Shown: one piece after another, positions 5,168 to 41,703 of the stretch
Layout of the letters: the number at the start of each line of letters is the position of its first letter
How positions within the stretch are numbered: the stretch's first letter is position 1
Assembly: GCF_009931435.1 (NCBI RefSeq)
Contig: NZ_CP043414.1
Length of the DNA: 64,000 nucleotides
Direction: 5' to 3' (one strand)
DNA from: Escherichia coli
GTDB lineage: Bacteria > Pseudomonadota > Gammaproteobacteria > Enterobacterales > Enterobacteriaceae
Position numbers and translations under genes: made by a program
The notes under the pieces: generated by a model
Told to the model about the DNA's origin: nothing
Database searches by the model: none
What the model saw: the letters and a program-made list of their open reading frames with translations, nothing else

Positions 5168-6625
5168 ATGAAAACACCCTCACAGCCGCGCGCGATATAC
5201 TATATCGTGGCGATCCAAATCTGGGAGTACTTCAGTTTTTACGGCATGCGTGCCTTACTCATTCTCTATCTCACCCATCAGCTTGGTTTTGATGATAACC
5301 ATGCCATCAGTCTGTTCAGCGCATATGCATCTCTGGTTTACGTTACCCCTATTCTCGGCGGCTGGCTTGCCGACCGCCTGCTCGGCAATCGTACTGCGGT
5401 AATTGCCGGCGCGCTGTTAATGACCCTTGGCCATGTAGTGCTGGGCATTGATACAAATTCAACCTTTAGCCTGTATCTGGCGCTGGCAATCATTATTTGT
5501 GGCTACGGTTTATTCAAATCAAACATCAGCTGTTTGCTTGGCGAGCTCTATGCCCCTGACGATCATCGACGTGATGGCGGTTTTTCGCTGCTGTATGCTG
5601 CGGGCAATATCGGTTCTATCGCAGCCCCCATCGCCTGCGGCCTGGCTGCTCAGTGGTATGGATGGCATGTTGGCTTTGCCCTTGCGGGTGGTGGCATGTT
5701 TATCGGTTTGTTGATTTTCTTAAGCGGTCATCGTCATTTCCAGTCCACGCGTAGTATGGATAAAAAAGCACTCACTCGAGTGAAATTTGCCTTACCGGTA
5801 TGGAGCTGGTTAGTGGTGATGCTCTGTTTAGCCCCAGTATTTTTTACCCTACTGCTGGAGAACGACTGGTCCGGATATTTGCTGGCGATCGTTTGCCTTA
5901 TTGCTGCACAAATCATTGCCCGCATGATGATCAAATTCCCCGAACACCGCCGTGCTCTTTGGCAAATTGTATTGTTGATGCTTGTCGGAACGTTGTTCTG
6001 GGTACTGGCACAACAGGGCGGCAGCACCATCAGCTTGTTTATCGATCGCTTTGTGAATCGTCAGGCATTCAATATTGAAGTGCCGACTGCGCTATTCCAG
6101 TCAGTGAATGCGATTGCAGTGATGCTCGCTGGGGTTGTTCTGGCCTGGCTGGCGTCGCCAGAAAGCCGCGGCAATTCAGCATTGCGCGTCTGGCTGAAGT
6201 TTGCCTTTGGCTTACTGCTGATGGCTTGTGGCTTTATGTTGCTGGCATTTGATGCCCGACATGCAGCGGCTGGCGGTCAAGCGTCAATGGGCGTGATGAT
6301 ATCCGGGCTGGCGCTAATGGGCTTTGCTGAACTCTTTATTGACCCGGTGGCGATTGCGCAAATCACGCGTCTGAAAATGTCTGGCGTATTAACCGGTATT
6401 TATATGCTGGCAACAGGCGCGGTCGCCAACTGGCTGGCAGGCGTCGTGGCACAGCAGACGACAGAGTCGCAAATTAGCGGTATGGCAATTGCAGCTTACC
6501 AGCGATTCTTTTCTCAGATGGGAGAGTGGACGTTGGCTTGTGTCGCGATCATCGTGGTATTGGCCTTTGCTGTCCGTTTTCTGTTTAGCACGCCGACGAA
6601 TATGATACAGGAGAGCAACGATTAA
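5168..6625 (+). CDS. dtpC: Proton-dependent dipeptide/tripeptide permease (POT family)
   Basis: 485-aa polytopic membrane ORF matching DtpC/YjdL; position between cadA and lysU as in K-12. Confidence 0.9.
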
Positions 6626-6861
6626 CTGTCGTAAAAACAATTGGTTATGAATAAATTAACTTTCAGTTTATCACACTAATAAATCGAGATTAATAAGTCA
6701 TTTAAACCATTTTTATGGTTATTTATTAGTGATATCAACTTGAGGTAAGCGTTAGTTTCGATAAGATAAACTGAGTTATTAATAGTCGAGGCAGATAATA
6801 CAGTGTACCGATCTGTCTCTTTATCTACGCTAAATTGAAAGCTGGATTTAGAGGAACCAAA

Positions 6862-8379
6862 ATGTCTGAACGAGAAACACGGGGAGCCAATGAGGCTATT
6901 GATTTTAACGATGAACTGAGAAATCGCCGCGAAAAACTGGCGGCACTACGTCAGCAAGGTGTGGCGTTTCCCAATGATTTTCGCCGCGACCATACCTCTG
7001 ACCAGTTGCACGAAGAGTTTGATGCGAAGGATAACCAGGAACTGGAATCCTTAAACATTGAAGTCTCGGTTGCTGGCCGAATGATGACCCGTCGTATCAT
7101 GGGGAAAGCCTCCTTTGTAACGTTGCAGGATGTCGGTGGCCGTATTCAACTGTACGTTGCACGAGATAGCCTGCCAGAAGGTGTTTATAACGATCAGTTT
7201 AAAAAATGGGACCTCGGCGACATTATCGGTGCCCGCGGTACGCTGTTTAAGACGCAAACTGGTGAGCTTTCCATTCACTGTACTGAGTTACGCCTGCTGA
7301 CTAAGGCACTGCGTCCATTGCCGGATAAATTCCATGGCTTACAGGATCAGGAAGTCCGTTATCGTCAACGTTATCTGGACCTCATCGCTAACGATAAATC
7401 CCGTCAAACGTTTGTTGTCCGTTCAAAAATTCTGGCCGCTATCCGTCAGTTCATGGTCGCTCGCGGTTTTATGGAAGTAGAAACCCCAATGATGCAGGTA
7501 ATTCCAGGTGGGGCATCTGCTCGCCCGTTTATTACCCATCATAATGCTCTGGATTTGGATATGTACCTGCGTATTGCGCCGGAGCTATATCTGAAACGTC
7601 TGGTTGTAGGTGGTTTTGAACGGGTATTCGAAATCAACCGTAACTTCCGTAATGAAGGTATTTCTGTTCGTCATAATCCTGAGTTCACGATGATGGAACT
7701 CTACATGGCGTATGCGGATTACCACGATTTGATTGAACTGACGGAATCACTGTTCCGCACTCTGGCACAAGAGGTACTGGGTACCACTAAAGTCACTTAT
7801 GGCGAGCATGTGTTTGATTTCGGCAAACCGTTTGAAAAACTCACCATGCGCGAAGCAATCAAAAAATATCGTCCAGAAACCAATATGGCGGACCTGGATA
7901 ATTTTGATGCTGCTAAAGCATTAGCTGAATCTATCGGAATTACGGTAGAGAAAAGCTGGGGGCTGGGACGCATTGTCACGGAGATCTTTGATGAAGTGGC
8001 AGAAGCACATCTGATTCAGCCAACCTTTATCACGGAATATCCGGCAGAAGTGTCACCGCTGGCGCGCCGTAATGATGTTAACCCGGAAATCACCGACCGT
8101 TTTGAATTCTTCATCGGTGGTCGTGAAATCGGTAATGGTTTTAGCGAATTAAACGACGCAGAAGATCAGGCGGAACGTTTCCAGGAACAGGTTAACGCTA
8201 AAGCTGCAGGTGACGACGAAGCCATGTTCTATGACGAAGATTACGTGACTGCGCTGGAATATGGTCTGCCGCCAACCGCGGGTCTGGGTATTGGTATCGA
8301 CCGAATGATTATGCTGTTTACTAACAGTCATACTATTCGCGACGTTATTCTCTTCCCGGCGATGCGTCCACAGAAATAA
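6862..8379 (+). CDS. lysU: Lysyl-tRNA synthetase, inducible isozyme
   Basis: 505 aa from the ATG at 6862 ([31 protein letters not shown]...); class II aaRS; the ORF-track start at 6835 is an upstream extension. Confidence 0.95.
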
Positions 8380-8497: not shown

Positions 8498-8671
8498 CTA
8501 AAAGAGAGAAAAAAGTAATGCCACAGGCAGGCTCATTGGCCAGGTTATTCCGACCAGAAATGCACTAAGTAAACGAATATGTGTTTTCTCATGTGAGATA
8601 AACCAGATAATGACAAAGGATATGTTCACACCAATCACATAAAAAATTAATATTTTAGAGAATAGTGCCAT
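8498..8671 (-). CDS. ghoT: GhoT membrane-lytic toxin of the type V GhoT/GhoS toxin-antitoxin pair (57 aa; below the ORF-track length cutoff)
   Basis: Minus-strand translation reads MALFSKILIFYVIGVNISFVIIWFISHEKTHIRLLSAFLVGITWPMSLPVALLFSLF*, matching GhoT/YjdO; lies directly downstream of ghoS. Confidence 0.85.
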   Translation of the reverse strand: MALFSKILIFYVIGVNISFVIIWFISHEKTHIRLLSAFLVGITWPMSLPVALLFSLF

Positions 8672-8698
8672 TTTTTATGTTCTTCTTATCCTTCCTGA

Positions 8699-8995
8699 CT
8701 ACTTGTAAAACTGACGGAAATAGTCATCAACTGTCATAATGTTGAGGTCAAAATCAATATCCGGTAAGTCTAAGCATTTGAGCCTGATTAAATCTTCGAT
8801 TTCACTTGCGGCTAACGATGTCGTTATTGCGAAGGAATTTTCATTCAATTGTCGTGGTATCCCATATTCATCAGCCACGATAGAGGAGAAATTCATATCA
8901 TACATCAATGATCTTAACCTTAAGAACACTGAGGAATAAGATGATGGATAATCAAAAGAAACAACATAAGTATTGAACTTGTTTTTACCTTCCAT
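8699..8995 (-). CDS. ghoS: GhoS antitoxin (sequence-specific endoribonuclease) of the type V TA pair
   Basis: 98 aa from the ATG at 8995 (MEGKNKFNTYVVSFDYPSSY...) matching YjdK/GhoS; the ORF-track start at 9037 is an extension. Confidence 0.85.
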   Translation of the reverse strand: MEGKNKFNTYVVSFDYPSSYSSVFLRLRSLMYDMNFSSIVADEYGIPRQLNENSFAITTSLAASEIEDLIRLKCLDLPDIDFDLNIMTVDDYFRQFYK

Positions 8996-9223
8996 AATAT
9001 GACTCCTATCAATATTAAACGCTCTGGGGACGCACAACTTATTAACCCCGATCGATGATTCTCATATAGGAGATATTCTTTTTTTTTTGCTCAGTAAAGG
9101 GGATGACTTGGGACAAGAAAACGCTCTCTCTGACCATTCTTTGTGCATCCCCCTACCCTTCAGATTCTCTCCTGCATCACACCGCGGAGAGCATGAAAAA
9201 TATCGTGACTCTGTACTCTCCCA

Positions 9224-9496
9224 TCAACTGCGAATATCATCATACTCCCGCGTTTTATCAAATTCGTGTTTCGCAAATGGACATAATGGGATAATTTTTC
9301 GTTTTTCCCGACGCATTTTTTCCACGACTTTCGCAACCAGCTGTTTACCAATCCCTTGCCCTTTCAGGCTTTCATCGACATCGGTATGTTCGATAATCGC
9401 TAAATTCTCTCCGGTCGGCACAAAGACAATTTCAGCGATTTGCTTGCCCTGTTCGTCATTAATGTAAAATTTATTGTGGCCTTCGTGTATTTCCAT
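9224..9496 (-). CDS. yjdJ: Small GNAT-family acetyltransferase
   Basis: 90-aa ORF matching YjdJ; position between ghoS and yjdI. Confidence 0.8.
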
Positions 9497-9507
9497 TTTA
9501 CCCTCGC

Positions 9508-9738
9508 TTATTTATGACGGTATTTCAGCGCGCCGCTCGGGCACGTATCAATCACTTTAACCACAGTGGCAACGTCGACTTCATCCGGCATGATCCACGG
9601 CTTTCGTTTGAGATTAAATAACTTGCCGTTGCCACGTACGCAATTGCCAGAATGCTGACATATCGCAGTGTTGAAATAGACATCGATCTTTTCGCCGGTA
9701 TAACAGCGATAACCCCCGTCCAGTAGCGCCTGATCCAT
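9508..9738 (-). CDS. yjdI: Small cysteine-rich ferredoxin-like protein (DUF1271)
   Basis: 76-aa ORF with a Cys cluster (CQHSGNC...C) matching YjdI. Confidence 0.8.
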
Positions 9739-9918
9739 GACCTTCCCTCTCTCATCAGTATGGTTTTCACTATAAGCATAGCCCTGGAATCTTCATACAG
9801 CACTGGCAGTTTCCGTTGCCAGAGTCTCTTCCCCTATATAGCCAATCATTCTTACTCCCTTTGAATTACCCGCCTCATCAGAGATAATGCTTAAGAAATT
9901 TGTCACACAAGGAAGCTG

Positions 9919-11550
9919 ATGAGACATTCATTGCCCTACCGTATGTTACGCAAACGTCCGATGAAATTGAGTACCACTGTGATCTTAATGGTCAGCGCGG
10001 TACTGTTCTCGGTGCTATTGGTGGTGCATCTGATTTACTTCTCGCAAATCAGTGATATGACGCGAGACGGGCTAGCCAACAAGGCACTGGCAGTGGCGCG
10101 TACCCTCGCCGACTCGCCGGAAATCCGTCAGGGCTTGCAGAAAAAACCGCAGGAGAGCGGCATCCAGGCCATCGCGGAAGCCGTGCGCAAACGCAACGAT
10201 CTGCTGTTTATTGTCGTTACCGATATGCAAAGTCTTCGCTACTCGCATCCTGAAGCCCAGCGTATTGGTCAGCCATTTAAAGGTGATGACATCCTTAAAG
10301 CGCTGAATGGCGAAGAAAATGTCGCTATCAATCGCGGTTTTCTGGCGCAGGCTTTACGCGTATTTACCCCCATCTACGATGAAAATCATAAACAAATTGG
10401 CGTGGTGGCGATCGGCCTTGAGTTAAGTCGCGTGACCCAACAGATCAATGACAGTCGCTGGAGCATCATCTGGTCGGTATTATTTGGCATGCTGGTCGGG
10501 CTGATTGGCACCTGCATTCTGGTTAAGGTACTGAAAAAAATCCTTTTCGGCCTGGAACCCTACGAAATCTCCACGCTGTTTGAGCAACGCCAGGCCATGT
10601 TGCAGTCTATCAAAGAAGGCGTCGTTGCCGTGGACGATCGCGGCGAGGTCACGCTGATCAACGATGCCGCACAAGAATTGCTGAATTACCGTAAGTCGCA
10701 GGACGATGAGAAACTGTCGACGCTAAGCCACGCGTGGTCACAGGTGGTAGATGTCTCGGAAGTGTTACGCGACGGTACCCCGCGGCGCGACGAAGAGATT
10801 ACGATTAAAGACCGGCTATTACTGATCAACACCGTTCCGGTGCGCAGTAATGGCGTTATCATCGGTGCCATTTCAACCTTCAGAGACAAAACTGAAGTAC
10901 GTAAACTGATGCAGCGACTCGATGGTCTGGTCAACTATGCTGACGCACTTCGTGAACGATCCCACGAATTTATGAATAAATTGCACGTGATTCTCGGATT
11001 ATTGCATCTGAAGAGTTATAAGCAGTTGGAAGATTACATTCTCAAAACAGCCAATAACTATCAGGAAGAGATTGGCTCTCTGCTGGGTAAGATCAAATCT
11101 CCGGTTATCGCTGGTTTTTTAATCAGCAAGATTAACCGCGCGACCGATTTAGGCCATACGCTGATTTTAAACAGTGAAAGCCAGTTGCCAGACAGCGGCA
11201 GTGAAGACCAGGTCGCGACGCTGATTACCACGTTGGGAAATCTGATAGAAAACGCGCTGGAGGCATTAGGACCGGAACCCGGTGGCGAAATTAGCGTAAC
11301 ATTGCACTACCGTCACGGCTGGCTGCACTGTGAAGTTAACGATGATGGACCGGGGATCGCACCCGACAAAATCGATCACATTTTTGACAAAGGTGTCTCG
11401 ACAAAAGGAAGCGAGCGAGGCGTCGGTTTAGCACTTGTCAAACAACAGGTAGAAAATCTCGGCGGCAGCATCGCCGTGGAATCGGAACCCGGGATTTTCA
11501 CACAATTTTTTGTCCAGATACCCTGGGACGGGGAGAGGTCGAACAGATGA
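9919..11550 (+). CDS. dcuS: C4-dicarboxylate sensor histidine kinase
   Basis: 543-aa ORF with N-terminal TM/periplasmic PAS and C-terminal HATPase motifs matching DcuS. Confidence 0.95.
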   Translation: MRHSLPYRMLRKRPMKLSTTVILMVSAVLFSVLLVVHLIYFSQISDMTRDGLANKALAVARTLADSPEIRQGLQKKPQESGIQAIAEAVRKRNDLLFIVVTDMQSLRYSHPEAQRIGQPFKGDDILKALNGEENVAINRGFLAQALRVFTPIYDENHKQIGVVAIGLELSRVTQQINDSRWSIIWSVLFGMLVGLIGTCILVKVLKKILFGLEPYEISTLFEQRQAMLQSIKEGVVAVDDRGEVTLINDAAQELLNYRKSQDDEKLSTLSHAWSQVVDVSEVLRDGTPRRDEEITIKDRLLLINTVPVRSNGVIIGAISTFRDKTEVRKLMQRLDGLVNYADALRERSHEFMNKLHVILGLLHLKSYKQLEDYILKTANNYQEEIGSLLGKIKSPVIAGFLISKINRATDLGHTLILNSESQLPDSGSEDQVATLITTLGNLIENALEALGPEPGGEISVTLHYRHGWLHCEVNDDGPGIAPDKIDHIFDKGVSTKGSERGVGLALVKQQVENLGGSIAVESEPGIFTQFFVQIPWDGERSNR

Positions 11551-12834: not shown

Positions 12835-14175
12835 ATGTTATTTACTATCCAACTTATCATAATACTGATATGTCTGTTTTATGGTGCCAGAAAGGGCGGT
12901 ATCGCGCTGGGTTTATTAGGCGGTATCGGCCTGGTCATTCTGGTCTTCGTCTTCCACCTTCAGCCAGGTAAACCACCGGTTGATGTCATGCTGGTTATCA
13001 TTGCGGTGGTGGCGGCCTCGGCGACCTTGCAAGCTTCGGGCGGTCTTGATGTCATGCTGCAAATTGCCGAGAAGCTGCTGCGCCGCAATCCGAAATATGT
13101 CTCAATTGTCGCACCGTTTGTAACCTGCACGCTGACCATTCTTTGCGGTACGGGTCATGTGGTTTACACCATTCTGCCGATCATCTACGACGTTGCTATT
13201 AAGAACAACATCCGTCCGGAACGTCCGATGGCGGCAAGTTCTATCGGTGCACAGATGGGGATTATCGCAAGTCCAGTGTCGGTTGCGGTTGTATCTCTGG
13301 TTGCGATGCTGGGTAATGTCACCTTTGATGGCCGCCATCTTGAGTTCCTCGACCTGCTGGCAATCACCATTCCATCGACGTTAATCGGTATCCTGGCGAT
13401 CGGTATCTTCAGTTGGTTCCGCGGTAAAGATCTGGATAAAGATGAAGAGTTCCAGAAATTCATCTCCGTACCGGAAAACCGTGAGTATGTTTACGGTGAT
13501 ACCGCGACGCTGCTGGATAAAAAACTGCCGAAAAGCAACTGGCTAGCAATGTGGATCTTCCTCGGGGCAATCGCTGTAGTTGCACTTCTTGGTGCTGATT
13601 CGGACCTGCGTCCATCCTTCGGTGGCAAACCGCTGTCGATGGTACTGGTTATTCAGATGTTTATGCTGCTAACCGGGGCGCTGATTATTATCCTGACCAA
13701 AACCAATCCCGCGTCTATCTCAAAAAACGAAGTCTTCCGTTCCGGTATGATCGCCATCGTGGCGGTGTACGGTATCGCATGGATGGCAGAAACCATGTTC
13801 GGTGCGCATATGTCTGAAATTCAGGGCGTACTGGGTGAAATGGTGAAAGAGTATCCGTGGGCCTATGCCATTGTTCTGCTGCTGGTTTCCAAATTTGTAA
13901 ACTCTCAGGCTGCGGCGCTGGCGGCGATTGTTCCGGTCGCGCTGGCGATCGGCGTTGATCCGGCATACATCGTGGCTTCAGCACCGGCTTGCTACGGTTA
14001 TTACATCCTGCCGACTTATCCGAGCGACCTGGCAGCGATTCAGTTTGACCGTTCCGGCACCACCCACATCGGTCGCTTCGTCATCAACCACAGCTTTATT
14101 CTGCCGGGGTTGATTGGTGTGAGCGTATCGTGCGTCTTCGGCTGGATCTTCGCTGCGATGTACGGGTTCTTATAA
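12835..14175 (+). CDS. dcuB: Anaerobic C4-dicarboxylate (fumarate/succinate) antiporter
   Basis: 446-aa polytopic membrane ORF matching DcuB; followed by fumB. Confidence 0.95.
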
Positions 14176-14252: not shown

Positions 14253-15899
14253 ATGTCAAACAAACCCTTTATCTACCAGGCACCTTTCCCGATGGGGAAA
14301 GACAATACCGAATACTATCTACTCACGTCCGATTACGTTAGCGTTGCCGACTTCGACGGCGAAACCATCCTGAAAGTGGAACCAGAAGCCCTGACCTTGC
14401 TGGCGCAGCAAGCCTTCCACGACGCTTCTTTCATGCTCCGCCCGGCACACCAGAAACAGGTTGCTGCAATTCTTCACGATCCAGAAGCCAGCGAAAACGA
14501 CAAGTACGTGGCGCTGCAATTCTTAAGAAACTCAGAAATCGCCGCCAAAGGCGTGCTGCCAACCTGCCAGGATACTGGCACCGCGATCATCGTCGGTAAA
14601 AAAGGTCAGCGCGTGTGGACCGGAGGCGGCGATGAAGAAGCGCTGTCGAAAGGTGTCTATAACACCTATATCGAAGATAACCTGCGTTACTCACAAAACG
14701 CGCCGCTGGACATGTACAAAGAGGTCAACACCGGCACGAACCTGCCTGCGCAAATCGACCTGTACGCGGTAGATGGCGACGAATACAAATTCCTCTGCGT
14801 CGCCAAAGGCGGTGGCTCTGCCAATAAAACGTATCTCTACCAGGAAACCAAAGCTTTGCTGACTCCCGGCAAACTGAAAAACTTCCTCGTCGAGAAAATG
14901 CGTACACTCGGTACTGCAGCCTGCCCGCCGTACCATATCGCGTTTGTGATTGGCGGTACGTCTGCGGAAACCAACCTGAAAACCGTCAAGTTAGCAAGCG
15001 CTCACTATTACGATGAACTGCCGACCGAAGGGAACGAACATGGTCAGGCGTTCCGAGATGTCCAGCTGGAACAGGAACTGCTGGAAGAGGCCCAGAAACT
15101 CGGCCTTGGCGCGCAGTTTGGCGGTAAATACTTCGCGCACGACATCCGCGTGATCCGTCTGCCACGTCACGGCGCATCCTGCCCGGTAGGTATGGGCGTC
15201 TCCTGCTCCGCTGACCGTAACATTAAAGCGAAAATCAACCGCGAAGGTATCTGGATCGAAAAACTGGAACACAATCCAGGCCAGTACATTCCACAAGAAC
15301 TGCGTCAGGCCGGTGAAGGCGAAGCGGTGAAAGTCGACCTTAACCGCCCGATGAAAGAGATCCTCGCCCAGCTTTCGCAATACCCGGTATCCACCCGCTT
15401 GTCGCTCACCGGCACTATTATCGTGGGTCGCGATATTGCACACGCCAAACTGAAAGAGCTGATTGACGCCGGTAAAGAACTGCCGCAGTACATCAAAGAT
15501 CACCCGATCTACTACGCGGGTCCGGCGAAAACGCCTGCCGGTTATCCATCAGGTTCACTTGGCCCAACCACCGCAGGTCGTATGGACTCCTACGTGGATC
15601 TGCTGCAATCCCACGGCGGCAGCATGATCATGCTGGCGAAAGGTAACCGCAGTCAGCAGGTTACCGACGCGTGTCATAAACACGGCGGCTTCTACCTCGG
15701 TAGTATCGGCGGCCCGGCGGCGGTACTGGCGCAGCAGAGCATCAAGCATCTGGAATGCGTCGCTTATCCGGAGCTGGGTATGGAAGCTATCTGGAAAATC
15801 GAAGTAGAAGATTTCCCGGCGTTTATCCTGGTCGATGACAAAGGCAACGACTTCTTCCAGCAAATCGTCAACAAACAGTGCGCGAACTGCACTAAGTAA
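14253..15899 (+). CDS. fumB: Class I fumarate hydratase, anaerobic isozyme
   Basis: 548-aa ORF matching FumB; dcuB-fumB arrangement as in E. coli. Confidence 0.95.
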
Positions 15900-16021: not shown

Positions 16022-16672
16022 ATGACCCGCACACTCAAGCCGTTAATTCTTAACACCGGCGCACTGGCGCTAACGTTAATCCTGATTTATACCGGCATTT
16101 CGGCCAATGACAAACTCACCTGGCTGATGGAAGTGACACCGGTGATTATTGTCGTGCCGCTACTGCTTGCCACCGCCAGACGTTACCCGTTAACGCCGCT
16201 GCTCTATACGCTCATTTTCTTTCATGCCATCATCCTGATGGTCGGCGGGCAATACACCTACGCGAAAGTCCCCGTTGGTTTTGAGGTGCAGGAATGGCTG
16301 GGGTTGAGCCGTAATCCGTATGACAAGCTGGGGCATTTTTTCCAGGGGCTGGTGCCTGCACTGGTGGCGCGAGAAATTCTCGTTCGCGGGATGTACGTGC
16401 ACGGACGTAAAATGGTGGCGTTTCTGGTCTGCTGCGTGGCGCTGGCGATAAGCGCGATGTATGAATTAATCGAGTGGTGGGCAGCGCTGGCAATGGGTCA
16501 GGGAGCGGATGATTTTCTCGGCACCCAGGGCGACCAGTGGGACACGCAATCCGATATGTTCTGCGCGCTGCTTGGCGCATTAACGACGGTGATATTCCTC
16601 GCTCGCTTTCATTGCCGCCAGCTACGGCGCTATGGCTTAATCACCAGAGCGCCGGAAGCGATTACCTCTTAA
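16022..16672 (+). CDS. yjdF: Inner-membrane protein YjdF; the 3' end may be altered at a deletion junction
   Basis: 216-aa membrane ORF matching YjdF over most of its length; its stop shares nucleotides with the melA stop on the opposite strand. Confidence 0.8.
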   Translation: MTRTLKPLILNTGALALTLILIYTGISANDKLTWLMEVTPVIIVVPLLLATARRYPLTPLLYTLIFFHAIILMVGGQYTYAKVPVGFEVQEWLGLSRNPYDKLGHFFQGLVPALVAREILVRGMYVHGRKMVAFLVCCVALAISAMYELIEWWAALAMGQGADDFLGTQGDQWDTQSDMFCALLGALTTVIFLARFHCRQLRRYGLITRAPEAITS

Positions 16673-18024
16673 CGGTGCAACCAGCCTGGCAGCCAGTCGC
16701 CGTGGGCGGCAATCAGGTCGTCAACAAGAGCATATATTTCGTCAATGCCCAGCACGGCGGCAGTATGCGGGTCCATCATCGCGGCGTGGTAAACACGGTC
16801 GCGATTTTCTGTGAGAATGGCTTCCGTCAGCAGCGTCTGTACGTTGATGTTGGTTTGCATCAGGGCGGCCAGATGCGAAGGTAGCGTACCGACTTTGGTC
16901 GGCTGAATGCCATTAGCATCAACTAAACAGGCCACTTCCACGCAACATCCTTGTGGCAGGTTATCAATCAAACCATCGTTACGGACGTTGCCATAAATCA
17001 CACTCGGCTCGCCAGTCCAGATAGCGTTCATGATTGTGCTGGCATATTCCCGTGACGGTTTAATATCAATCCGGGAGGCGTTCTTATACTCCTCCAGCTC
17101 TTTATGCCAGTTCGCCAGCTGCTCGACGCAGCGTTTCGGGTACTCATCCAGCGGTACTTTATAACGCTCAATCAAATCCTCACGACCTGGCTTAATAAAC
17201 CACGGCGTGTACTCAGCAAAATGTTCTGACGATTCCGTGACGAAGTAGCCCAGCTTTTTGAACATTTCGTAGCGCACAATATTCTGGCAGCGAGTATTGC
17301 CATGAATATTCGGCTTCGGTGCCTGCCCTGCTTCATAAGCCGCCAGCAGTTCCGGGTAGAGATTCACGTAACTGCCGTCGGCGGTTTTGCGCTCCAGTTC
17401 CAGGTAAAACGCCATATGGTTGATACCTGCGCAACGGTAACGCAGCGTAGCCGGGTCGATATTGAGGTCACGCGCCAGCTCTTCCGCCGTTCCCTGCACC
17501 GAATGGCACAGCCCTACCTGTTTGATATGCGGATAGCGGGCATACATCGCCCAGGTATTCATCGCCATTGGGTTAACATAGTTGAGCATGGTGGCATCGG
17601 GGCAGACTTCCGTCATGTCCTCGCAAATTTGCCACAGGTGCGGAATGGTACGCAGCGCGCGCATAATACCGCCCGGCCCCAGCGTATCGGCAATGGTTTG
17701 TTCCAGACCGTGGCGCTTACAGACCTCGAAATCAGTCACCGTGCAAGGTTCATAACCGCCAATCTGAAATGCCACCACGACAAAATCGGCATCCTGTAAG
17801 GCTTCTTTCTGTTGGGTGTGGCAGGTGATTTTGCCGCTGGCCCCTGCTGAATCCATCAGCTTGCGCACCACAATATGCGACTCTTCCAGGCGGGTGGGAT
17901 CAATGTCCATCAGGGCAATATGCGCCGTTTTCAGCGCCTCGCGATGGAACACATCACCAAGAATATTTTTAACGAAAATCGTCGAACCAGCGCCGATAAA
18001 TGTAATTTTGGGTGCAGACATCAT
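16669..18024 (-). CDS. melA: Alpha-galactosidase (melibiase), NAD/Mn-dependent GH4
   Basis: 451-aa ORF (MMSAPKITFIGAGSTIF ... LPGWLHR) matching MelA; divergent from melR. Confidence 0.95.
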   Translation of the reverse strand: MMSAPKITFIGAGSTIFVKNILGDVFHREALKTAHIALMDIDPTRLEESHIVVRKLMDSAGASGKITCHTQQKEALQDADFVVVAFQIGGYEPCTVTDFEVCKRHGLEQTIADTLGPGGIMRALRTIPHLWQICEDMTEVCPDATMLNYVNPMAMNTWAMYARYPHIKQVGLCHSVQGTAEELARDLNIDPATLRYRCAGINHMAFYLELERKTADGSYVNLYPELLAAYEAGQAPKPNIHGNTRCQNIVRYEMFKKLGYFVTESSEHFAEYTPWFIKPGREDLIERYKVPLDEYPKRCVEQLANWHKELEEYKNASRIDIKPSREYASTIMNAIWTGEPSVIYGNVRNDGLIDNLPQGCCVEVACLVDANGIQPTKVGTLPSHLAALMQTNINVQTLLTEAILTENRDRVYHAAMMDPHTAAVLGIDEIYALVDDLIAAHGDWLPGWLHR

Positions 18025-18306
18025 GCAGATCTCCTGGCTTGCTTGAATAACTTCATCATGGCAGGCGAATCTGCAGAAAACCTCCGGCTTCCAGGTTGAG
18101 CATTCCCATAAACTCAGATCCTGCGTGAAGTGTCAGTAAATCTGAGTTTATGGGAATAAATTACCTGAAAAGCAGAGTTTTCGGCCTCATGGTACTCGGA
18201 TGATCCCTTCGCCCCTCTGGCAAGAGGACGAAAACCGTGCTCCCACTCGCAGTCATCCTCCCTCACTCCTGCCATAATTCTGATATTCCAGGAAAGAGAG
18301 TCATCC
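18025..18306. promoter_or_regulatory. Divergent melR/melA promoter region (MelR and CRP sites expected)
   Basis: 282-bp intergenic region between divergently oriented melA and melR; sites not individually resolved. Confidence 0.5.
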
Positions 18307-19215
18307 ATGAATACAGATACGTTTATGTGCAGCAGCGACGAAAAACAGACCCGCAGCCCGCTGTCGCTGTATTCGGAATACCAGCGGATGGAGATTGAGT
18401 TTCGCGCACCGCATATCATGCCCACCAGCCACTGGCATGGTCAGGTCGAAGTGAATGTGCCTTTCGATGGCGATGTGGAATACCTGATCAACAATGAAAA
18501 AGTGAGTATCAATCAGGGACATATCACGCTGTTCTGGGCCTGTACACCGCACCAACTAACAGATACCGGAACCTGTCAGAGCATGGCGATTTTTAATCTG
18601 CCGATGCATCTGTTTCTCTCCTGGCCGCTGGATAAAGACCTGATTAACCACGTCACTCACGGCATGGTGATCAAATCACTGGCGACACAGCAACTTAGCC
18701 CGTTTGAAGTGCGCCGCTGGCAGCAGGAATTGAACAGTCCGAACGAGCAAATTCGCCAGCTCGCCATTGATGAAATTGGCCTGATGCTCAAGCGATTTAG
18801 CCTCTCTGGCTGGGAACCGATTCTGGTCAATAAAACCTCGCGCACACACAAAAACAGCGTCTCGCGCCATGCGCAATTTTATGTCAGCCAGATGCTGGGC
18901 TTTATTGCCGAAAACTATGATCAGGCGCTGACCATCAACGATGTGGCTGAGCACGTCAAACTTAACGCCAACTATGCAATGGGGATATTCCAGCGGGTCA
19001 TGCAATTGACGATGAAACAGTACATTACCGCGATGCGCATCAACCACGTTCGCGCGTTACTGAGCGATACCGATAAAAGTATTCTCGATATTGCCCTGAC
19101 GGCAGGCTTTCGTTCGAGTAGCCGTTTTTACAGCACGTTCGGCAAATATGTCGGCATGTCACCGCAACAATACCGCAAACTTAGCCAACAGCGCCGCCAG
19201 ACGTTTCCCGGCTAA
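18307..19215 (+). CDS. melR: AraC-family melibiose operon activator
   Basis: 302-aa ORF with C-terminal AraC-type HTH matching MelR. Confidence 0.95.
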   Translation: MNTDTFMCSSDEKQTRSPLSLYSEYQRMEIEFRAPHIMPTSHWHGQVEVNVPFDGDVEYLINNEKVSINQGHITLFWACTPHQLTDTGTCQSMAIFNLPMHLFLSWPLDKDLINHVTHGMVIKSLATQQLSPFEVRRWQQELNSPNEQIRQLAIDEIGLMLKRFSLSGWEPILVNKTSRTHKNSVSRHAQFYVSQMLGFIAENYDQALTINDVAEHVKLNANYAMGIFQRVMQLTMKQYITAMRINHVRALLSDTDKSILDIALTAGFRSSSRFYSTFGKYVGMSPQQYRKLSQQRRQTFPG

Positions 19216-19413
19216 AGACGATATCAGTATCAGCCAAAAAAATAGTTTAGCCGTCGATAATAAGCAGTGAAAATAAATCAAAATAATCACATAACATATT
19301 GTTTATAAAAATGAATATATAAAAAATGTTTGTTTTTCATGCGCTTTACAGCCCGAAAAGGCCGGAAGATACTTGCCCGCAACGAAGATTCCTTCATAAC
19401 CGGGTAAGCAATG

Positions 19414-21681
19414 ATGAAAGTATTAATTGTTGAAAGCGAGTTTCTCCATCAGGACACCTGGGTCGGTAACGCCGTTGAGCGTCTGGCAGATGCTTTAAGC
19501 CAGCAAAATGTTACCGTGATTAAATCCACCTCCTTTGATGATGGCTTTGCCATTCTCTCTTCAAACGAAGCCATTGACTGCCTGATGTTCAGCTATCAAA
19601 TGGAACATCCGGACGAACATCAAAACGTCAGACAATTGATCGGTAAGCTTCATGAGCGCCAACAAAACGTGCCGGTCTTCCTGTTGGGCGATCGGGAAAA
19701 AGCCCTCGCCGCAATAGACCGAGATCTGCTGGAGCTTGTCGATGAATTCGCCTGGATTCTGGAAGATACCGCCGACTTTATCGCCGGACGCGCCGTTGCC
19801 GCAATGACCCGCTACCGCCAGCAGCTGTTGCCGCCACTGTTCAGCGCGCTGATGAAATATAGCGACATCCATGAATATTCCTGGGCAGCGCCAGGCCACC
19901 AGGGCGGCGTTGGCTTTACCAAAACACCCGCCGGACGTTTTTACCATGACTACTATGGTGAAAATCTGTTCCGCACCGACATGGGCATCGAACGGACTTC
20001 CCTCGGTTCTTTGCTTGACCATACTGGCGCATTTGGCGAAAGCGAAAAATATGCCGCACGCGTATTTGGTGCCGATCGCTCCTGGTCGGTAGTCGTCGGT
20101 ACTTCCGGCTCTAACCGTACCATCATGCAGGCTTGCATGACCGATAACGATGTAGTGGTCGTTGACCGTAACTGCCATAAATCCATCGAACAAGGCTTGA
20201 TGCTGACAGGCGCGAAACCGGTCTACATGGTGCCAAGCCGCAACCGCTACGGCATTATCGGGCCAATTTATCCGCAGGAAATGCAACCTGAAACCTTGCA
20301 GAAGAAAATCAGTGAAAGCCCGCTGACCAAAGACAAAGCCGGGCAAAAACCGTCTTACTGCGTGGTAACCAACTGCACCTATGACGGCGTGTGTTATAAC
20401 GCTAAAGAAGCGCAGGATCTGCTGGAAAAAACTTCCGATCGTCTGCACTTTGACGAAGCCTGGTACGGCTATGCACGTTTCAACCCGATCTATGCCGATC
20501 ACTATGCCATGCGCGGTGAACCTGGCGATCACAACGGTCCTACCGTTTTCGCCACCCACTCAACCCACAAACTGCTGAATGCGCTGTCACAGGCCTCTTA
20601 CATTCATGTGCGTGAAGGTCGTGGGGCGATTAACTTCTCCCGCTTCAACCAGGCATACATGATGCATGCCACCACCTCCCCGCTGTATGCCATCTGTGCA
20701 TCTAACGACGTGGCGGTGTCGATGATGGACGGCAACAGCGGCCTGTCACTGACCCAGGAAGTGATCGACGAAGCGGTTGATTTCCGTCAAGCGATGGCAC
20801 GGCTGTATAAAGAGTTCACCCATGACGGTAGCTGGTTCTTCAAACCGTGGAACAAAGAAGTGGTCACCGATCCACAAACCGGCAAAACCTACGACTTTGC
20901 TGACGCGCCAACCAAACTGCTGACCACCGTTCAGGACTGCTGGGTAATGCATCCGGGCGAAAGCTGGCACGGCTTCAAAGATATTCCGGATAACTGGAGT
21001 ATGCTCGACCCAATTAAAGTCAGCATTCTCGCACCGGGAATGGGTGAAGATGGTGAACTGGAAGAAACCGGTGTTCCGGCGGCGCTGGTCACTGCCTGGC
21101 TTGGTCGCCACGGCATTGTGCCTACCCGCACCACTGACTTCCAGATTATGTTCCTGTTCTCTATGGGCGTAACCCGTGGGAAATGGGGAACTCTGGTTAA
21201 CACCCTTTGCTCCTTCAAACGCCACTACGACGCCAACACACCGCTGGCGCAGGTGATGCCGGAACTTGTTGAACAATATCCTGACACTTACGCGAATATG
21301 GGGATTCACGATCTGGGTGACACCATGTTTGCCTGGCTAAAAGAAAATAACCCTGGCGCACGGTTGAACGAAGCCTATTCCGGCCTGCCGGTGGCGGAAA
21401 TCACCCCGCGTGAAGCGTACAACGCAATTGTCGATAACAATGTCGAACTGGTATCCATTGAAAATCTGCCTGGACGCATCGCGGCAAACTCAGTTATCCC
21501 GTATCCGCCAGGAATCCCGATGCTACTGTCTGGTGAAAACTTCGGCGATAAAAACAGTCCACAGGTAAGTTATTTACGCTCCCTGCAATCCTGGGACCAT
21601 CATTTCCCTGGATTTGAACACGAAACTGAAGGGACTGAAATTATTGACGGTATTTACCACGTCATGTGTGTGAAAGCGTAA
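19414..21681 (+). CDS. adiA: Biodegradative (acid-inducible) arginine decarboxylase
   Basis: 755 aa from the ATG at 19414 (MKVLIVESEFLHQDTWVGNAVERLADALSQ...); paralogous to CadA. Confidence 0.95.
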   Translation: MKVLIVESEFLHQDTWVGNAVERLADALSQQNVTVIKSTSFDDGFAILSSNEAIDCLMFSYQMEHPDEHQNVRQLIGKLHERQQNVPVFLLGDREKALAAIDRDLLELVDEFAWILEDTADFIAGRAVAAMTRYRQQLLPPLFSALMKYSDIHEYSWAAPGHQGGVGFTKTPAGRFYHDYYGENLFRTDMGIERTSLGSLLDHTGAFGESEKYAARVFGADRSWSVVVGTSGSNRTIMQACMTDNDVVVVDRNCHKSIEQGLMLTGAKPVYMVPSRNRYGIIGPIYPQEMQPETLQKKISESPLTKDKAGQKPSYCVVTNCTYDGVCYNAKEAQDLLEKTSDRLHFDEAWYGYARFNPIYADHYAMRGEPGDHNGPTVFATHSTHKLLNALSQASYIHVREGRGAINFSRFNQAYMMHATTSPLYAICASNDVAVSMMDGNSGLSLTQEVIDEAVDFRQAMARLYKEFTHDGSWFFKPWNKEVVTDPQTGKTYDFADAPTKLLTTVQDCWVMHPGESWHGFKDIPDNWSMLDPIKVSILAPGMGEDGELEETGVPAALVTAWLGRHGIVPTRTTDFQIMFLFSMGVTRGKWGTLVNTLCSFKRHYDANTPLAQVMPELVEQYPDTYANMGIHDLGDTMFAWLKENNPGARLNEAYSGLPVAEITPREAYNAIVDNNVELVSIENLPGRIAANSVIPYPPGIPMLLSGENFGDKNSPQVSYLRSLQSWDHHFPGFEHETEGTEIIDGIYHVMCVKA

Positions 21682-30574: not shown

Positions 30575-32799
30575 TATCGTTCTGCCGTGAAAAGTGTTTG
30601 AATATCATCGCGTAACAGCTGAGCGTCGATGTAAATCCAGCCATGAGTCATCACAGTCTGCTGCAATTGCTGCTGCATCAGCCTGACCACCGATTCATTT
30701 TGTTGACGCAGAGCCAGACTTTCGCGTAAACGCGTCTGTAATTCCGTCAAACATGAAGCAAACTCAGCGAAAAAAGTATTCATGCCTGCCGTAACAGATT
30801 CATCGACCTGCTCTGCCAGAACTTTAGCCATTTGTTGGCAATAAAGATCGACTTCTGCGCTTAATGCTCGTTGCAACGCACTGTAATCAACCGTCTCTAT
30901 CGGGGATTTCTCATTTCCCCGTCCCCAGTCGGGCTGATTCAACCAGCGCGAAAAAGTCTCACGCACAACGCCTAAACGCGTGCTCTGCTCGTCCATTGCG
31001 TCCTGGCGCGAAATGACTTCACTGAACAGCTGGCGAGTGTTGAAGTGGGGAACTGCGCCGTGAAAAACAGGAAAATGAAACCCAGAACGAAACCCTGACT
31101 CGCTCAATTCCATTTTGACTTGTTGCTCAATGGGCCGAATAACATCGGTTAACACCCGGCAAAGAGTGGATTCAAGCTCGGCAAAACGCAGCGTAAAGTC
31201 GCGACTGATGGTGTTCTGCGCCGTCTGTAACAGTGTCTCACAGCAGGTACGAATCTCGCTTAATGACCCCGAATCATCCTGAAACAACGCGGCTAACTGG
31301 GCATTCACCGCATCTTGCTGTTGACGCAGAAAGAGGTTGGCGGAGGTCAGGGCCAGCTCGATTTCATGTTTAATCTCGCCGCTCACCTGAGCCTGATTGA
31401 GTTGAAATAGCTGCAAACTTTCTTCGATCTGGTGGATATTTTGCCGCAATTGTTCACAAGCGACGTTTAACCCGTGCGCACGAAAATCCAGGTATTCCCG
31501 CGCCTGCTGCGCGTAATTCAACAGTTTATGCGCGGCAGATCGCAGAGCATACAACGAGGCGTTAGCGTAAGCGGCATGAAGCAACGCCTGAATTGGCTGG
31601 GCGAACAGCGAATCTTCCCACAACTGATCGGCAGCATGACGAATATGTTCGAGGTCCGCCAGGTCGGCATGACGCCAGCGCCTGCCGAGCGCGGCATGGG
31701 CAAAATCTTCCACCCAGCGTTGTTGCTCTGGCGCGGGTAACTTACCGTTGTTGGCTAACTCATTACGCGCCCGATTCGCCAGGTAGCCCCACATCGACGA
31801 CACTGGAAATATCTGCTGTGGCGTAATACAGCCTTTCATCAGCGTCCCGGAAATCAGTGCCCGCACCTGGTCGGCGTCGTCACTGTTACGATCCTGTTGA
31901 TCGAACTTATTGACCAGCACATACAGCGGCACCGATTGCCCCACCGCCAAAATCGCCTCACGGACCTCGTCATCGGAGATCGATTTCAGTTGCGTATAAT
32001 CCAGCACCGCCAGTACCGCCGAGGCGCGAGCCAGCTGCTGGTTAAGCATTTTTTGCAGATGCGGTTGCCCGGCTTCATTTGGCCCAGGGGTATCCAGTAA
32101 CGTCAACTGACCGGGATAACTCTCCAGCCCCGCCAGATGGACAAACTCCACTTCAATCACGGGAATATGCTCAATGGCGGCGTAAGCAGAAAAAGGAAAA
32201 TCGACGTCCAGCGCCTTCGCCAGTCGCACCAAATCATTCAAACTTTTCAGACAATGAAAAATAGGCTGGGCACCCAGATAATATTTTTCGAAAGCGACGC
32301 CATTTTCGATCCGCTGCATAAGCGCACGCATATCTTTATCTATTTCCAGCACATCGGTCAGATGCTTAATATCGCAGTCACGCAGGCGCTGTTGTAATTG
32401 TTGAATTAAACAGTCGATTGGCGCGACATGTGAAAAATGCAGTACCGGTTCTTTTTGCCCGGGCGTATGACGAATAAGCGTCGGCAGCGCAGTCATTGGG
32501 CGATTGCGATTAGGCAGAACCTCCGTACCAACAATGGCATTAATGGTGGTTGATTTCCCTGCTTTCATAGTACCGACAATCGCCAGCACCATTTCCAGTC
32601 GGGAAATTTTACGCAACTCATTATTCAGCATCGCGTGACGTTCGGCGATATTAGGCTGACTCCAGGGTAAAGCCAGTTGTGGCGCATCGTCTCCGGGTAC
32701 AGAGAGAGGCATTTTTTCCAGTAACTGCAACTGTTGGCGAGAAAGCTGTAACAGGCGTTCAGCCTCCTGACTTAACTCATACAGGGTCTGTGTGTACAT
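30571..32799 (-). CDS. crfC: Dynamin-like large GTPase CrfC/YjdA
   Basis: 742-aa ORF with P-loop GTPase motif (GTMKAGKST) near the N-terminus and long coiled-coil-rich remainder. Confidence 0.85.
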   Translation of the reverse strand: MYTQTLYELSQEAERLLQLSRQQLQLLEKMPLSVPGDDAPQLALPWSQPNIAERHAMLNNELRKISRLEMVLAIVGTMKAGKSTTINAIVGTEVLPNRNRPMTALPTLIRHTPGQKEPVLHFSHVAPIDCLIQQLQQRLRDCDIKHLTDVLEIDKDMRALMQRIENGVAFEKYYLGAQPIFHCLKSLNDLVRLAKALDVDFPFSAYAAIEHIPVIEVEFVHLAGLESYPGQLTLLDTPGPNEAGQPHLQKMLNQQLARASAVLAVLDYTQLKSISDDEVREAILAVGQSVPLYVLVNKFDQQDRNSDDADQVRALISGTLMKGCITPQQIFPVSSMWGYLANRARNELANNGKLPAPEQQRWVEDFAHAALGRRWRHADLADLEHIRHAADQLWEDSLFAQPIQALLHAAYANASLYALRSAAHKLLNYAQQAREYLDFRAHGLNVACEQLRQNIHQIEESLQLFQLNQAQVSGEIKHEIELALTSANLFLRQQQDAVNAQLAALFQDDSGSLSEIRTCCETLLQTAQNTISRDFTLRFAELESTLCRVLTDVIRPIEQQVKMELSESGFRSGFHFPVFHGAVPHFNTRQLFSEVISRQDAMDEQSTRLGVVRETFSRWLNQPDWGRGNEKSPIETVDYSALQRALSAEVDLYCQQMAKVLAEQVDESVTAGMNTFFAEFASCLTELQTRLRESLALRQQNESVVRLMQQQLQQTVMTHGWIYIDAQLLRDDIQTLFTAERY

Positions 32800-33559: not shown

Positions 33560-33715
33560 GCACATGATCGGTAGGCCGGATAAGGCGCTCGCGCCGCATC
33601 CGGCTACGGTGCCGACTGCCTGATGCGACGCTCGCGCGTCTTATCAGGCCTACAAATTCTCGCACCATCCGGCAACGGTGCCTAATGCGACGCTTACCGA
33701 GTCTTATCAGCCCCC
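33560..33715. repeat. BIME/REP cluster of several palindromic units
   Basis: Repeated gcctgatgcgacgc...gtcttatcaggcctac and ggtaggccggataaggcg...ccgcatccggc motifs typical of enterobacterial REP elements. Confidence 0.85.
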
Positions 33716-33775
33716 GCTCATCTGTATAATTTTCGAACTACACTTAACTGGCTTCTCTTAACTGAGGTCACCATC

Positions 33776-34219
33776 ATGCCGTTAAGTCCCTACCTCTCTT
33801 TTGCTGGTAACTGTTCCGATGCGATTGCCTATTATCAACGCACGTTGGGCGCGGAACTGCTTTATAAAATCAGCTTCGGCGAAATGCCGAAATCAGCGCA
33901 GGACAGCGCCGAGAACTGCCCTTCCGGAATGCAATTTCCCGATACCGCCATCGCTCATGCCAACGTGCGCATTGCCGGAAGCGACATCATGATGAGCGAT
34001 GCCATACCGTCAGGAAAAGCCAGCTACTCCGGCTTTACGCTGGTACTCGATTCGCAACAGGTCGAAGAAGGAAAACGCTGGTTTGACAACCTTGCCGCTA
34101 ACGGAAAAATCGAAATGGCCTGGCAGGAAACTTTCTGGGCGCATGGCTTCGGCAAAGTCACCGATAAATTTGGCGTACCGTGGATGATTAATGTCGTCAA
34201 ACAACAACCAACGCACTAA
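33776..34219 (+). CDS. yjdN: VOC/glyoxalase-family protein YjdN (PhnB)
   Basis: 147-aa ORF matching YjdN/PhnB. Confidence 0.85.
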   Translation: MPLSPYLSFAGNCSDAIAYYQRTLGAELLYKISFGEMPKSAQDSAENCPSGMQFPDTAIAHANVRIAGSDIMMSDAIPSGKASYSGFTLVLDSQQVEEGKRWFDNLAANGKIEMAWQETFWAHGFGKVTDKFGVPWMINVVKQQPTH

Positions 34220-34245
34220 CCCGCCGGGAGGCCCGCCCTCCCGCA

Positions 34246-34296
34246 CTGTCATCGAATTCCCGTTAACTCTTCATCTGTTAGTCACTTTTAGTTAAC
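34246..34296 (+). promoter_or_regulatory. Putative Pho box / phnC promoter
   Basis: CTGTCAT at 34246 and CTGTTAG at 34275 with TTAAC-containing repeats 50-100 bp upstream of phnC; consistent with PhoB control of the phn operon, exact site boundaries uncertain. Confidence 0.5.
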
Positions 34297-34351
34297 AAAA
34301 TCGTCACGATAATCCGCCACGATGGAGCCACTTTTTTAGGGAGGCTGCATC

Positions 34352-35140
34352 ATGCAAACGATTATCCGCGTCGAACAACTGAGCAAAACCTTCAATCAGC
34401 ATCAGGCGCTGCACGCGGTTGATCTGAACATTCATCACGGTGAAATGGTGGCTCTGCTTGGGCCGTCGGGTTCCGGCAAATCCACCCTTTTACGTCACTT
34501 AAGCGGCCTGATTGTCGGCGATAAAAAGCCAGAATGCCGCGTCGAACTGCTGGGCCGCACCGTCCAGCAAAATGGCCGCCTGGCCCGCGATATCCGCAAA
34601 AGCCGCGCCAACACCGGCTACATCTTCCAACAATTCAACCTGGTGAATCGCCTGAGCGTACTGGAGAACGTGCTGATTGGCGCGCTCGGCAGCACGCCGT
34701 TCTGGCGTACCTGTTTTAGCTGGTTCACCCGCGAGCAGAAACAGCGTGCGTTACAGGCACTGACTCGCGTTGGGATGGTGCACTTTGCCCATCAGCGCGT
34801 TTCCACGCTCTCCGGCGGCCAGCAGCAGCGTGTGGCGATAGCCCGTGCGCTGATGCAGCAGGCGAAGGTGATTCTGGCCGATGAACCCATCGCCTCGCTG
34901 GACCCGGAATCGGCCCGCATCGTGATGGATACCCTGCGCGACATCAACCAGAACGACGGCATCACCGTGGTGGTGACGCTGCATCAGGTGGATTACGCCC
35001 TGCGCTACTGCGAACGCATCGTCGCCCTGCGCCAGGGGCACGTCTTCTACGACGGCAGCAGCCAACAGTTTGATAACGAACGTTTTGACCATCTCTACCG
35101 CAGCATTAACCGCGTCGAAGAGAACGCGAAAGCTGCCTGA
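34352..35140 (+). CDS. phnC: Phosphonate ABC transporter ATP-binding protein
   Basis: 262-aa ORF with Walker A (GPSGSGKST), ABC signature (LSGGQQQR) and Walker B. Confidence 0.95.
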
Positions 35141-35164
35141 CATCCCCATCATTGAGGAAAACGA

Positions 35165-36181
35165 ATGAACGCTAAGATAATTGCCTCGCTGGCCTTCACC
35201 AGCATGTTCAGCCTCAGCACCCTGTTCAGCCCGGCACACGCCGAAGAGCAGGAAAAGGCGCTGAATTTCGGCATTATTTCAACGGAATCACAGCAAAACC
35301 TGAAACCGCAATGGACGCCTTTCCTGCAAGATATGGAGAAGAAACTGGGCGTAAAGGTCAACGCCTTCTTTGCTCCGGACTACGCGGGCATTATCCAGGG
35401 GATGCGCTTCAATAAAGTGGATATCGCCTGGTACGGCAATCTGTCGGCGATGGAAGCGGTGGATCGCGCCAACGGTCAGGTCTTCGCCCAGACGGTCGCG
35501 GCGGATGGATCGCCGGGTTACTGGAGCGTGTTGATCGTCAACAAAGACAGTCCGATCAACAACCTGAACGATCTGCTGGCGAAGCGTAAAGATCTCACCT
35601 TTGGCAATGGCGATCCTAACTCCACCTCTGGCTTCCTCGTCCCCGGCTACTACGTCTTCGCCAAAAACAATATCTCCGCCAGCGACTTCAAGCGCACCGT
35701 CAACGCCGGGCATGAAACCAACGCGCTGGCCGTCGCCAACAAGCAGGTGGATGTGGCGACCAACAACACCGAGAACCTCGACAAGCTGAAAACCTCCGCA
35801 CCGGAGAAGCTCAAAGAACTGAAGGTGATCTGGAAATCGCCGCTGATCCCAGGCGATCCGATCGTCTGGCGCAAAAATCTTTCCGAAACCACCAAAGACA
35901 AGATCTACGACTTCTTTATGAACTACGGCAAAACGCCGGAAGAGAAAGCGGTGCTGGAGCGCCTGGGCTGGGCCCCGTTCCGCGCCTCCAGCGACCTGCA
36001 ACTGGTGCCAATTCGCCAGCTCGCGCTGTTTAAAGAGATGCAGGGCGTGAAAGGCAATAAGGGACTGAATGAGCAGGACAAGCTGGCAAAAACCACCGCC
36101 ATTCAGGCGCAACTGGATGATTTGGACCGCCTGAACAACGCGTTAAGCGCAATGAGTTCGGTGAGTAAAGCGGTGCAGTAA
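35165..36181 (+). CDS. phnD: Phosphonate ABC transporter periplasmic binding protein
   Basis: 338-aa ORF with N-terminal signal peptide; matches PhnD. Confidence 0.95.
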   Translation: MNAKIIASLAFTSMFSLSTLFSPAHAEEQEKALNFGIISTESQQNLKPQWTPFLQDMEKKLGVKVNAFFAPDYAGIIQGMRFNKVDIAWYGNLSAMEAVDRANGQVFAQTVAADGSPGYWSVLIVNKDSPINNLNDLLAKRKDLTFGNGDPNSTSGFLVPGYYVFAKNNISASDFKRTVNAGHETNALAVANKQVDVATNNTENLDKLKTSAPEKLKELKVIWKSPLIPGDPIVWRKNLSETTKDKIYDFFMNYGKTPEEKAVLERLGWAPFRASSDLQLVPIRQLALFKEMQGVKGNKGLNEQDKLAKTTAIQAQLDDLDRLNNALSAMSSVSKAVQ

Positions 36182-36187
36182 TGTGCT

Positions 36188-36295: not shown

Positions 36296-36307
36296 ACGGA
36301 GCCAAAC

Positions 36308-37087: not shown

Positions 37088-37107
37088 TAAGCGAGGCATT
37101 GATAGCT

Positions 37108-41524: not shown

Positions 41525-41535
41525 GCCTTGCTTGT

Positions 41536-41690: not shown

Positions 41691-41703
41691 CGAAGAGGCC
41701 AAA

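Follow-up and report, generated by a model that had tools for sequence, protein, structure and literature searches.

A frequent melB-less allele of the mel locus in Escherichia coli and its probable descent from one old deletion

The stretch of Escherichia coli DNA analysed here (64,000 nucleotides, hereafter the window) very probably carries the common melB-less Escherichia allele of the mel locus, which stems from one old deletion, has since been inherited and recombined, and in which MelA has been kept by selection. The allele is already known and is an ordinary, frequent lineage polymorphism, published when Touchon et al. (2009; PMC2617782) put ‘melB, melibiose permease’ on their list of genes that every B2 strain lacks; the B2 phylogroup was later found to be negatively associated with the melibiose pathway (Touchon et al., 2020; PMC7314097). 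Its value as a discovery is therefore small, the absence of melB having been in print since 2009 and being visible in the RefSeq annotation of more than 1000 finished genomes. It does carry a caution for annotation and metabolic models, namely that at the mel locus the gene order of K-12 cannot be taken as the norm for the species. The analysis goes beyond the papers found in that (i) the deletion scar is common to E. whittamii and, as a remnant, E. albertii, and (ii) melA is under strong purifying selection in the absence of melB. Together these make alpha-galactoside uptake in melB-less strains a clean, testable question.

Gene content and junction of the mel locus

The left side of the locus holds dcuB (12835-14175) followed by fumB (14253-15899, plus strand), a conserved neighbour that serves as context only, as does adiA (19411-21681, plus strand) on the right; fumB and adiA were delineated by open reading frames (ORFs) and alignment to MG1655. 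Between them three ORFs were identified: a long allele of yjdF (16022-16672, plus strand; 651 nt, 216 aa) encoding a DUF2238 inner-membrane protein, melA (16669-18024, minus strand; 451 aa) encoding alpha-galactosidase, and melR (18307-19215, plus strand; 302 aa) encoding the AraC-family activator of the mel promoter. The divergent melR-melA regulatory region (18025-18306) was placed by alignment to K-12. The gene order in MG1655 is adiA-melR-melA-melB-yjdF-fumB-dcuB, and of the features of a K-12-type melR and melAB locus the window has melR and has melA as the first gene, with no melB downstream. The K-12 order given in the initial annotation and its comparison of 209 with 216 yjdF codons both agree with MG1655, and melA and melR, which it had called intact, are full-length ORFs.

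MelA matched the NCBIfam model PRK15076 (736 bits, cutoff 486) and MelR the equivalog model PRK10371 (635 bits, cutoff 253). YjdF matched the equivalog model PRK09867 (464 bits, cutoff 353), with residues 1-208 aligned to positions 1-208 of the 209 in the profile and the 8-residue tail falling outside it. Nucleotide identity to K-12 was 97.4% for yjdF (16022-16645), 98.2% for melA, 99.1% for melR and 95.7% for the regulatory region, in which the differences are confined to the melR-proximal part; the melA-proximal half is identical to K-12, with 0 differences in the 125 nt nearest melA. A tblastn search for MelB-like sequence elsewhere in the 64-kb window found none (best E = 0.4).

Colinearity with MG1655 stops at 16645 (yjdF codon 208, ACC) and restarts at 16669, with the final base of the melA stop codon. 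Between these breakpoints K-12 has 1668 nt and the window has 23 nt, AGAGCGCCGGAAGCGATTACCTC (16646-16668), which are here called the filler or scar. The K-12 stretch that is missing from the window comprises the last yjdF sense codon and stop, the 138-nt melB-yjdF spacer with a REP element plus a hairpin followed by a T-run, melB itself (1422 nt) and the 102-nt melA-melB spacer. The alignment thereby bears out the initial reading that melB and the melA-melB spacer are missing between melA and yjdF, nearly all of both spacers being gone together with melB. The overlap between the ends of melA (16669) and yjdF (16672) was also read correctly: both convergent stop codons use the TTAA at 16669-16672, the yjdF stop being the TAA at 16670-16672 and the melA stop the complement of 16669-16671 (minus-strand TAA, 16671-16669).

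The K-12 YjdF protein (209 aa) ends in ...RRFGLITG. That of the window (216 aa) has the C-terminus ...RRYGLITRAPEAITS, with ...GLITRAPEAITS as its final residues; residues 1-208 are colinear with K-12 and are followed by RAPEAITS in place of G. A breakpoint inside the yjdF 3' end that creates a new C-terminus had been suspected, and it is located here to the last codons of yjdF, with 8 new residues. The melB-less allele is recognized by a AGAGCGCC(G/A)GAAG... filler past yjdF codon 208 and by stop codons that overlap on TTAA (TTAG in some), and the window shows this signature; it also has the 216-aa YjdF ending in RAPE(A/V)xxx (...LITRAPEAITS). In the junction alignments the same filler was found in RMDEC465, 14EC047, E1V33, SCPM-O-B-8794, E. 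whittamii, E. albertii, CFT073 and 042. The tail reads RAPEAITP in CFT073, 042, E. whittamii and SCPM-O-B-8794, RAPEATTP in E1V33 and RAPEALNL in E. albertii.

The filler and one arm of the conserved melA-melB intercistronic hairpin, which lies directly downstream of melA in all melB-containing taxa compared, have the 9-mer GCGCCGGAA in common. Shuffling equalled the score of this match 8 times in 1000 when confined to the spacer, and 204 times in 1000 when the whole deleted segment was used. Since the match is significant only for a search restricted to the spacer, it does no more than suggest that the filler is what remains, in shortened form, of the melA-melB spacer on its melA side. A microhomology-mediated deletion between the CCGGA motifs of the spacer and of the end of yjdF was rejected, the observed junction sequence being unlike the product of such an event.

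We propose that a single old deletion would have removed the last yjdF sense codon and stop, the REP-containing yjdF-melB spacer, melB and most of the melA-melB spacer. It would have fused the yjdF frame to about 23 nt of leftover spacer, extending it by 8 codons to a stop on the TTAA that holds the melA stop. The melAB operon would have been cut down to a single-gene melA unit with its MelR-dependent regulatory region retained, in which melA presumably closes the transcription unit instead of preceding melB.

The deletion also took the REP element and hairpin between the convergent yjdF and melA. No terminator-like site was detected at the junction by a consensus scan, hits elsewhere being at chance level, and the folds of both transcripts across the junction were no better than those of shuffled sequences (z = -1.3 and -1.1); the birth of a new terminator or structured element at the junction was rejected on these grounds. 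As no terminator-like site or unusually stable fold replaces the lost REP element and hairpin, some read-through into the opposite gene may be possible at the yjdF/melA junction.

Frequency in E. coli and age of the deletion

A 2.2-kb query spanning the junction was compared by megablast with 5426 complete E. coli genomes. The query matched in one piece in 1267 genomes, including CFT073, LF82 and 042, and it splits exactly at the melA stop in the remaining ones. The K-12 melB segment was found in 4137 of the 5426 genomes and a third arrangement in 12. The classes add up to 5416 (1267 + 4137 + 12), compared with 5413 genomes with any match to the locus; because they cover essentially all genomes, melB is absent, and not moved, in the genomes that bear the junction. 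Relocation of melB was rejected accordingly, none being present in the 64-kb window and the class counts leaving no room for genomes with both.

The junction was confirmed by direct inspection in CFT073, 042 and RMDEC465, and RefSeq annotates the same 651-nt yjdF in RMDEC465, 042 and 14EC047. The overlap of yjdF and melA is likewise annotated by RefSeq in LF82, NRG 857C, the Nissle-derived SYNB1934, K-15KW01, H105 and a strain named ST648. We take 042 and the strain named ST648 to belong to phylogroups D and F, and K-15KW01 and H105 to ST131. At the mel locus the window is about 97-98% identical to each of K-12, CFT073 and 042, and the nearest complete genomes are RMDEC465, 2013C-4282 and WL297 (99.0-99.3%). 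The window is thus not close to CFT073 and is no typical B2 sequence; as its nearest genomes are of other lineages, and as 042 and the strain named ST648 have the melB-less allele too, the allele seems not to be confined to B2. It would have been inherited and spread by homologous recombination across several Escherichia species and, within E. coli, phylogroups B2, D and F among others, where it coexists with the undeleted melB-containing allele of K-12-like strains. Over positions 8000-30000 of the window (22 kb) no complete RefSeq E. coli genome is more than 99.3% identical, so that finished genomes evidently cover the source lineage poorly; the best match is RMDEC465, which carries an IS66 insertion in the matching stretch.

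For the age of the deletion the species-representative genomes were scanned for YjdF, which gave 57 loci. In Escherichia sp. E1V33, ‘E. coli’ SCPM-O-B-8794 and E. whittamii, melB is missing, the filler is that of the window, the stop codons overlap in the same way and YjdF has 216 aa. The genes on either side show 91-96% identity to those of the window (88-96% with E. albertii included). A 23-nt filler common to lineages with 4-12% diverged flanks points to one old event and not to recurrent deletion. In the outgroups (Citrobacter portucalensis, C. braakii, C. amalonaticus S646, Kluyvera and others) melB lies between melA and yjdF, and the YjdF proteins are 205-209 aa long, some with a K-12-like end (...LIAG or ...LIG). 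According to this gene order and these lengths, melB with a short YjdF is the ancestral state in enterobacteria, and the deletion with its 216-aa tail is derived, so that the initial interpretation of the locus as a deletion also stands relative to the ancestral order. Within Escherichia itself, how old the polymorphism is and in which direction it ran are fixed only in part, since the scan recovered no type genome of E. fergusonii, E. marmotae or E. ruysiae; nor did it return the main E. coli representative.

The initial annotation had treated the arrangement as if it were a special feature of one genome. This part was not upheld, because the identical junction occurs throughout the large class of complete genomes described above and in other Escherichia species, and because the absence from B2 was already published (PMC2617782); the question whether the allele recurs in a lineage, to be settled by genome alignment, is answered by the same 1267 of 5426 genomes. 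It had also allowed that reference genomes might lack melB at this position, which is partly so: CFT073 and 042 lack it, and the K-12 order is as that annotation gave it. A recent deletion private to one strain or narrow clone would be in keeping with the absence of any complete genome more than 99.3% identical to the mel region of the window, and hence with a poorly sampled source lineage, but it is extremely improbable given that the junction is shared with CFT073, 042, LF82 and the rest of the 1267 genomes and with four other Escherichia species-level lineages whose flanks are 4-12% diverged. The probability of an assembly or sequencing artefact, in which the contig was collapsed or mis-joined at the REP downstream of melB, is smaller still and practically negligible: nothing specific speaks for it apart from the REP elements that flank melB in K-12, both reading frames are clean, more than 1000 independently finished genomes have the same junction, and RefSeq annotates the yjdF/melA overlap.

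Further mel losses, recombination and the maintenance of melA and melR

Loss at the mel locus has gone further in some lineages. In E. albertii the same scar leads into no more than 35 nt from the melA 3' end, after which come the last bases of melR and then adiA (retrieved locus 6001-6891). Since the scar from yjdF through the filler to the melA stop is kept, this second deletion arose on a melB-less background. The third allele, found in the 12 complete E. coli genomes (14EC047, 14EC017, 14EC007, ML35, 2013C-4991, D1 and others), combines the scar with the second deletion, so that only 35 nt remain of melA and about 10 nt of melR (14EC047, NZ_CP024155.1, retrieved locus 6122-7013). In 14EC047 the piece reaching from the yjdF tail to what is left of melA occupies 4593429-4593490 (6748-6808 of the retrieved locus). 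The allele lies in a fumB-yjdF-adiA segment of E. albertii type, with 98.25% identity to E. albertii and 87-91% to typical E. coli, and it looks like introgression. Outside Escherichia, melB has been lost and melA and melR kept, with yjdF and melA convergent, in C. youngae and in Citrobacter sp. wls619, Cu233 and MGH106. A lost melB beside a retained melA is a recurrent pattern in more than one genus. The whole mel locus is missing from C. werkmanii and one C. amalonaticus.

The dN/dS ratio of melA is 0.00-0.03 at dS 0.10-0.43 among melB-less lineages, and the MelA proteins of the window and CFT073 are identical (dN = 0) despite 2.1% nucleotide divergence. In every melB-less genome examined for its integrity melA is full length. 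To judge from these ratios, the intact melR and the conserved melA-proximal regulatory region, melA and melR are maintained and not decaying. The initial annotation had described an alpha-galactosidase left without its dedicated transporter; melB is indeed gone, but the decay implied by this wording is at odds with the strong purifying selection on melA. That melA and melR are functionless leftovers on their way to loss is accordingly improbable, even though a second deletion has removed them on a melB-less background in E. albertii, 14EC047, ML35 and others, and yjdF itself is frameshifted in CFT073; besides the selection, the unchanged MelA and the intact melR with its conserved promoter-proximal region, both genes are also kept in the four Citrobacter genomes that lost melB independently.

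Retention of MelA without MelB implies that alpha-galactoside substrates must enter by another carrier. In K-12, LacY transports melibiose and allows growth on this sugar at 42 C, where MelB is inactive. Extrapolating from this physiology, the entry route in melB-less strains would be LacY or another permease, most likely LacY. Published phenotypes are mixed: 8 of 16 ST131 isolates were melibiose-positive (PMC9170502), and one ST131 strain used melibiose ‘less efficiently’ (PMC10581457). The papers on E. coli melibiose use that we found did not link melibiose phenotype to melB genotype.

Recombination at the locus is illustrated by the genome of R32_14_1F, which is 99.2% identical to the window over 22 kb, yet has melB. 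Its melB segment is 99.3-99.5% identical to K-12 and its flanking genes 96.7-98.6%; the melB patch is about 1.9 kb long (8640-10570 of its retrieved locus), and its switch points fall no more than 17 nt from the yjdF end on one side and about 160-250 nt inside melA on the other. This mosaic suggests that melB presence or absence travels in short homologous patches. Single-nucleotide differences adjacent to the junction (three sites within 10 nt) were discarded as allele markers, as 042 pairs K-12 bases with the scar.

A tentative alternative to loss by descent reverses the direction of change within the genus. The melB-less junction would be ancestral within Escherichia, and K-12-type melB would have been secondarily re-imported from a lineage that retained it, spreading by homologous recombination. 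This would agree with the presence of the scar in four of the five Escherichia genomes obtained that are divergent or of species other than E. coli, and with the fifth, MOD1-EC7003, in which the MelB protein is 100% identical to K-12 and the flanks are 96-97.6% identical to the window at the nucleotide level. It would also agree with the uniformity of melB, whose segment reaches 99% identity or more to K-12 in 4126 of the 4137 genomes that have it, when melA is below 99% in 2473 genomes, about 1200 beyond the 1267 melB-less ones, and with the K-12-like melB patch of R32_14_1F on its window-like background. However, the gap in identity is modest, the lowest values among melB-containing genomes being about 99.1% for melB and about 98.4% for melA. 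K-12 MelB is 82-85% identical to the MelB proteins of Citrobacter and Kluyvera, which are 84-88% identical to each other, as vertical descent would predict. The first 141 nt of melA at the junction are identical in K-12 and the window, so that no donor-derived flank is visible, and the genomes compared exclude E. fergusonii, E. marmotae and E. ruysiae. The divergence of the MelB protein was dropped as a test of a foreign origin of K-12 melB, because MelB is more variable than MelA across all genera compared and the test is uninformative. In its fullest form, which we regard as doubtful, the scar would be either a trans-species polymorphism dating back to the origin of the genus Escherichia or the ancestral state of that genus, K-12-type melB would have been re-imported and would still be spreading via short patches, and MelA would have been kept throughout without MelB. 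If this were true, the natural substrates of MelA would arrive through another permease, or MelA would serve something besides melibiose. We prefer the reading as one old deletion on a melB-containing background, with later recombination between the two alleles.

Comparison with known mel loci

The melB loss in Citrobacter differs from that in the window: YjdF has 210 aa there, and the stops, which overlap in the window, are held apart by a spacer of about 58 nt with a hairpin (retrieved loci, about 6630-6700). Because its scar differs from that of Escherichia, it is a separate event. The complete-loss allele of E. albertii and the 12 E. coli genomes has a window-like scar and a 216-aa YjdF, and differs from the window in that melA (but for its last 35 nt) and melR (but for about its last 10 nt) are gone. 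A ‘mel deletion with a 70-bp fragment of unknown origin’ has been described in O80:H2 (PMC11945584), and the complete-loss allele may be this ‘70mel’ deletion.

The melB-less locus of CFT073, a B2 strain, resembles the window in the order fumB-yjdF><melA-melR-adiA, the 4-nt stop overlap, the 23-nt filler and the type of YjdF tail, and the MelA protein is identical in both. Nucleotide identity between them is 94.5-98.9% per gene and 84.5% in the melR-melA spacer. The same spacer of the window shows 83-87% identity to its counterparts in SCPM-O-B-8794 and E. whittamii; melA and melR on either side of it reach about 98-99% in the comparison with CFT073. The yjdF gene of CFT073 is annotated as a frameshifted pseudogene (CFT073 locus 31811-32453), unlike the intact copies of the window, RMDEC465 and 042. 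Beyond the mel locus, identity to CFT073 is 97.0% over 1-33649 of the window and goes down to 93.2-94.6% across the crfC-phn operon stretch (33650-45800). Three short gaps relative to CFT073 could not be aligned (about 33650-33678, 36182-36296 and 41527-41651), and they partly coincide with REP-like repeats.

Compared with the melR and melAB locus of K-12, melR, the regulatory region and melA of the window are colinear and 96-99% identical, and fumB and adiA are neighbours in both. Only K-12 has the 1422-nt melB, the 102-nt spacer with the conserved hairpin, the 138-nt REP-containing spacer and the 209-aa YjdF.
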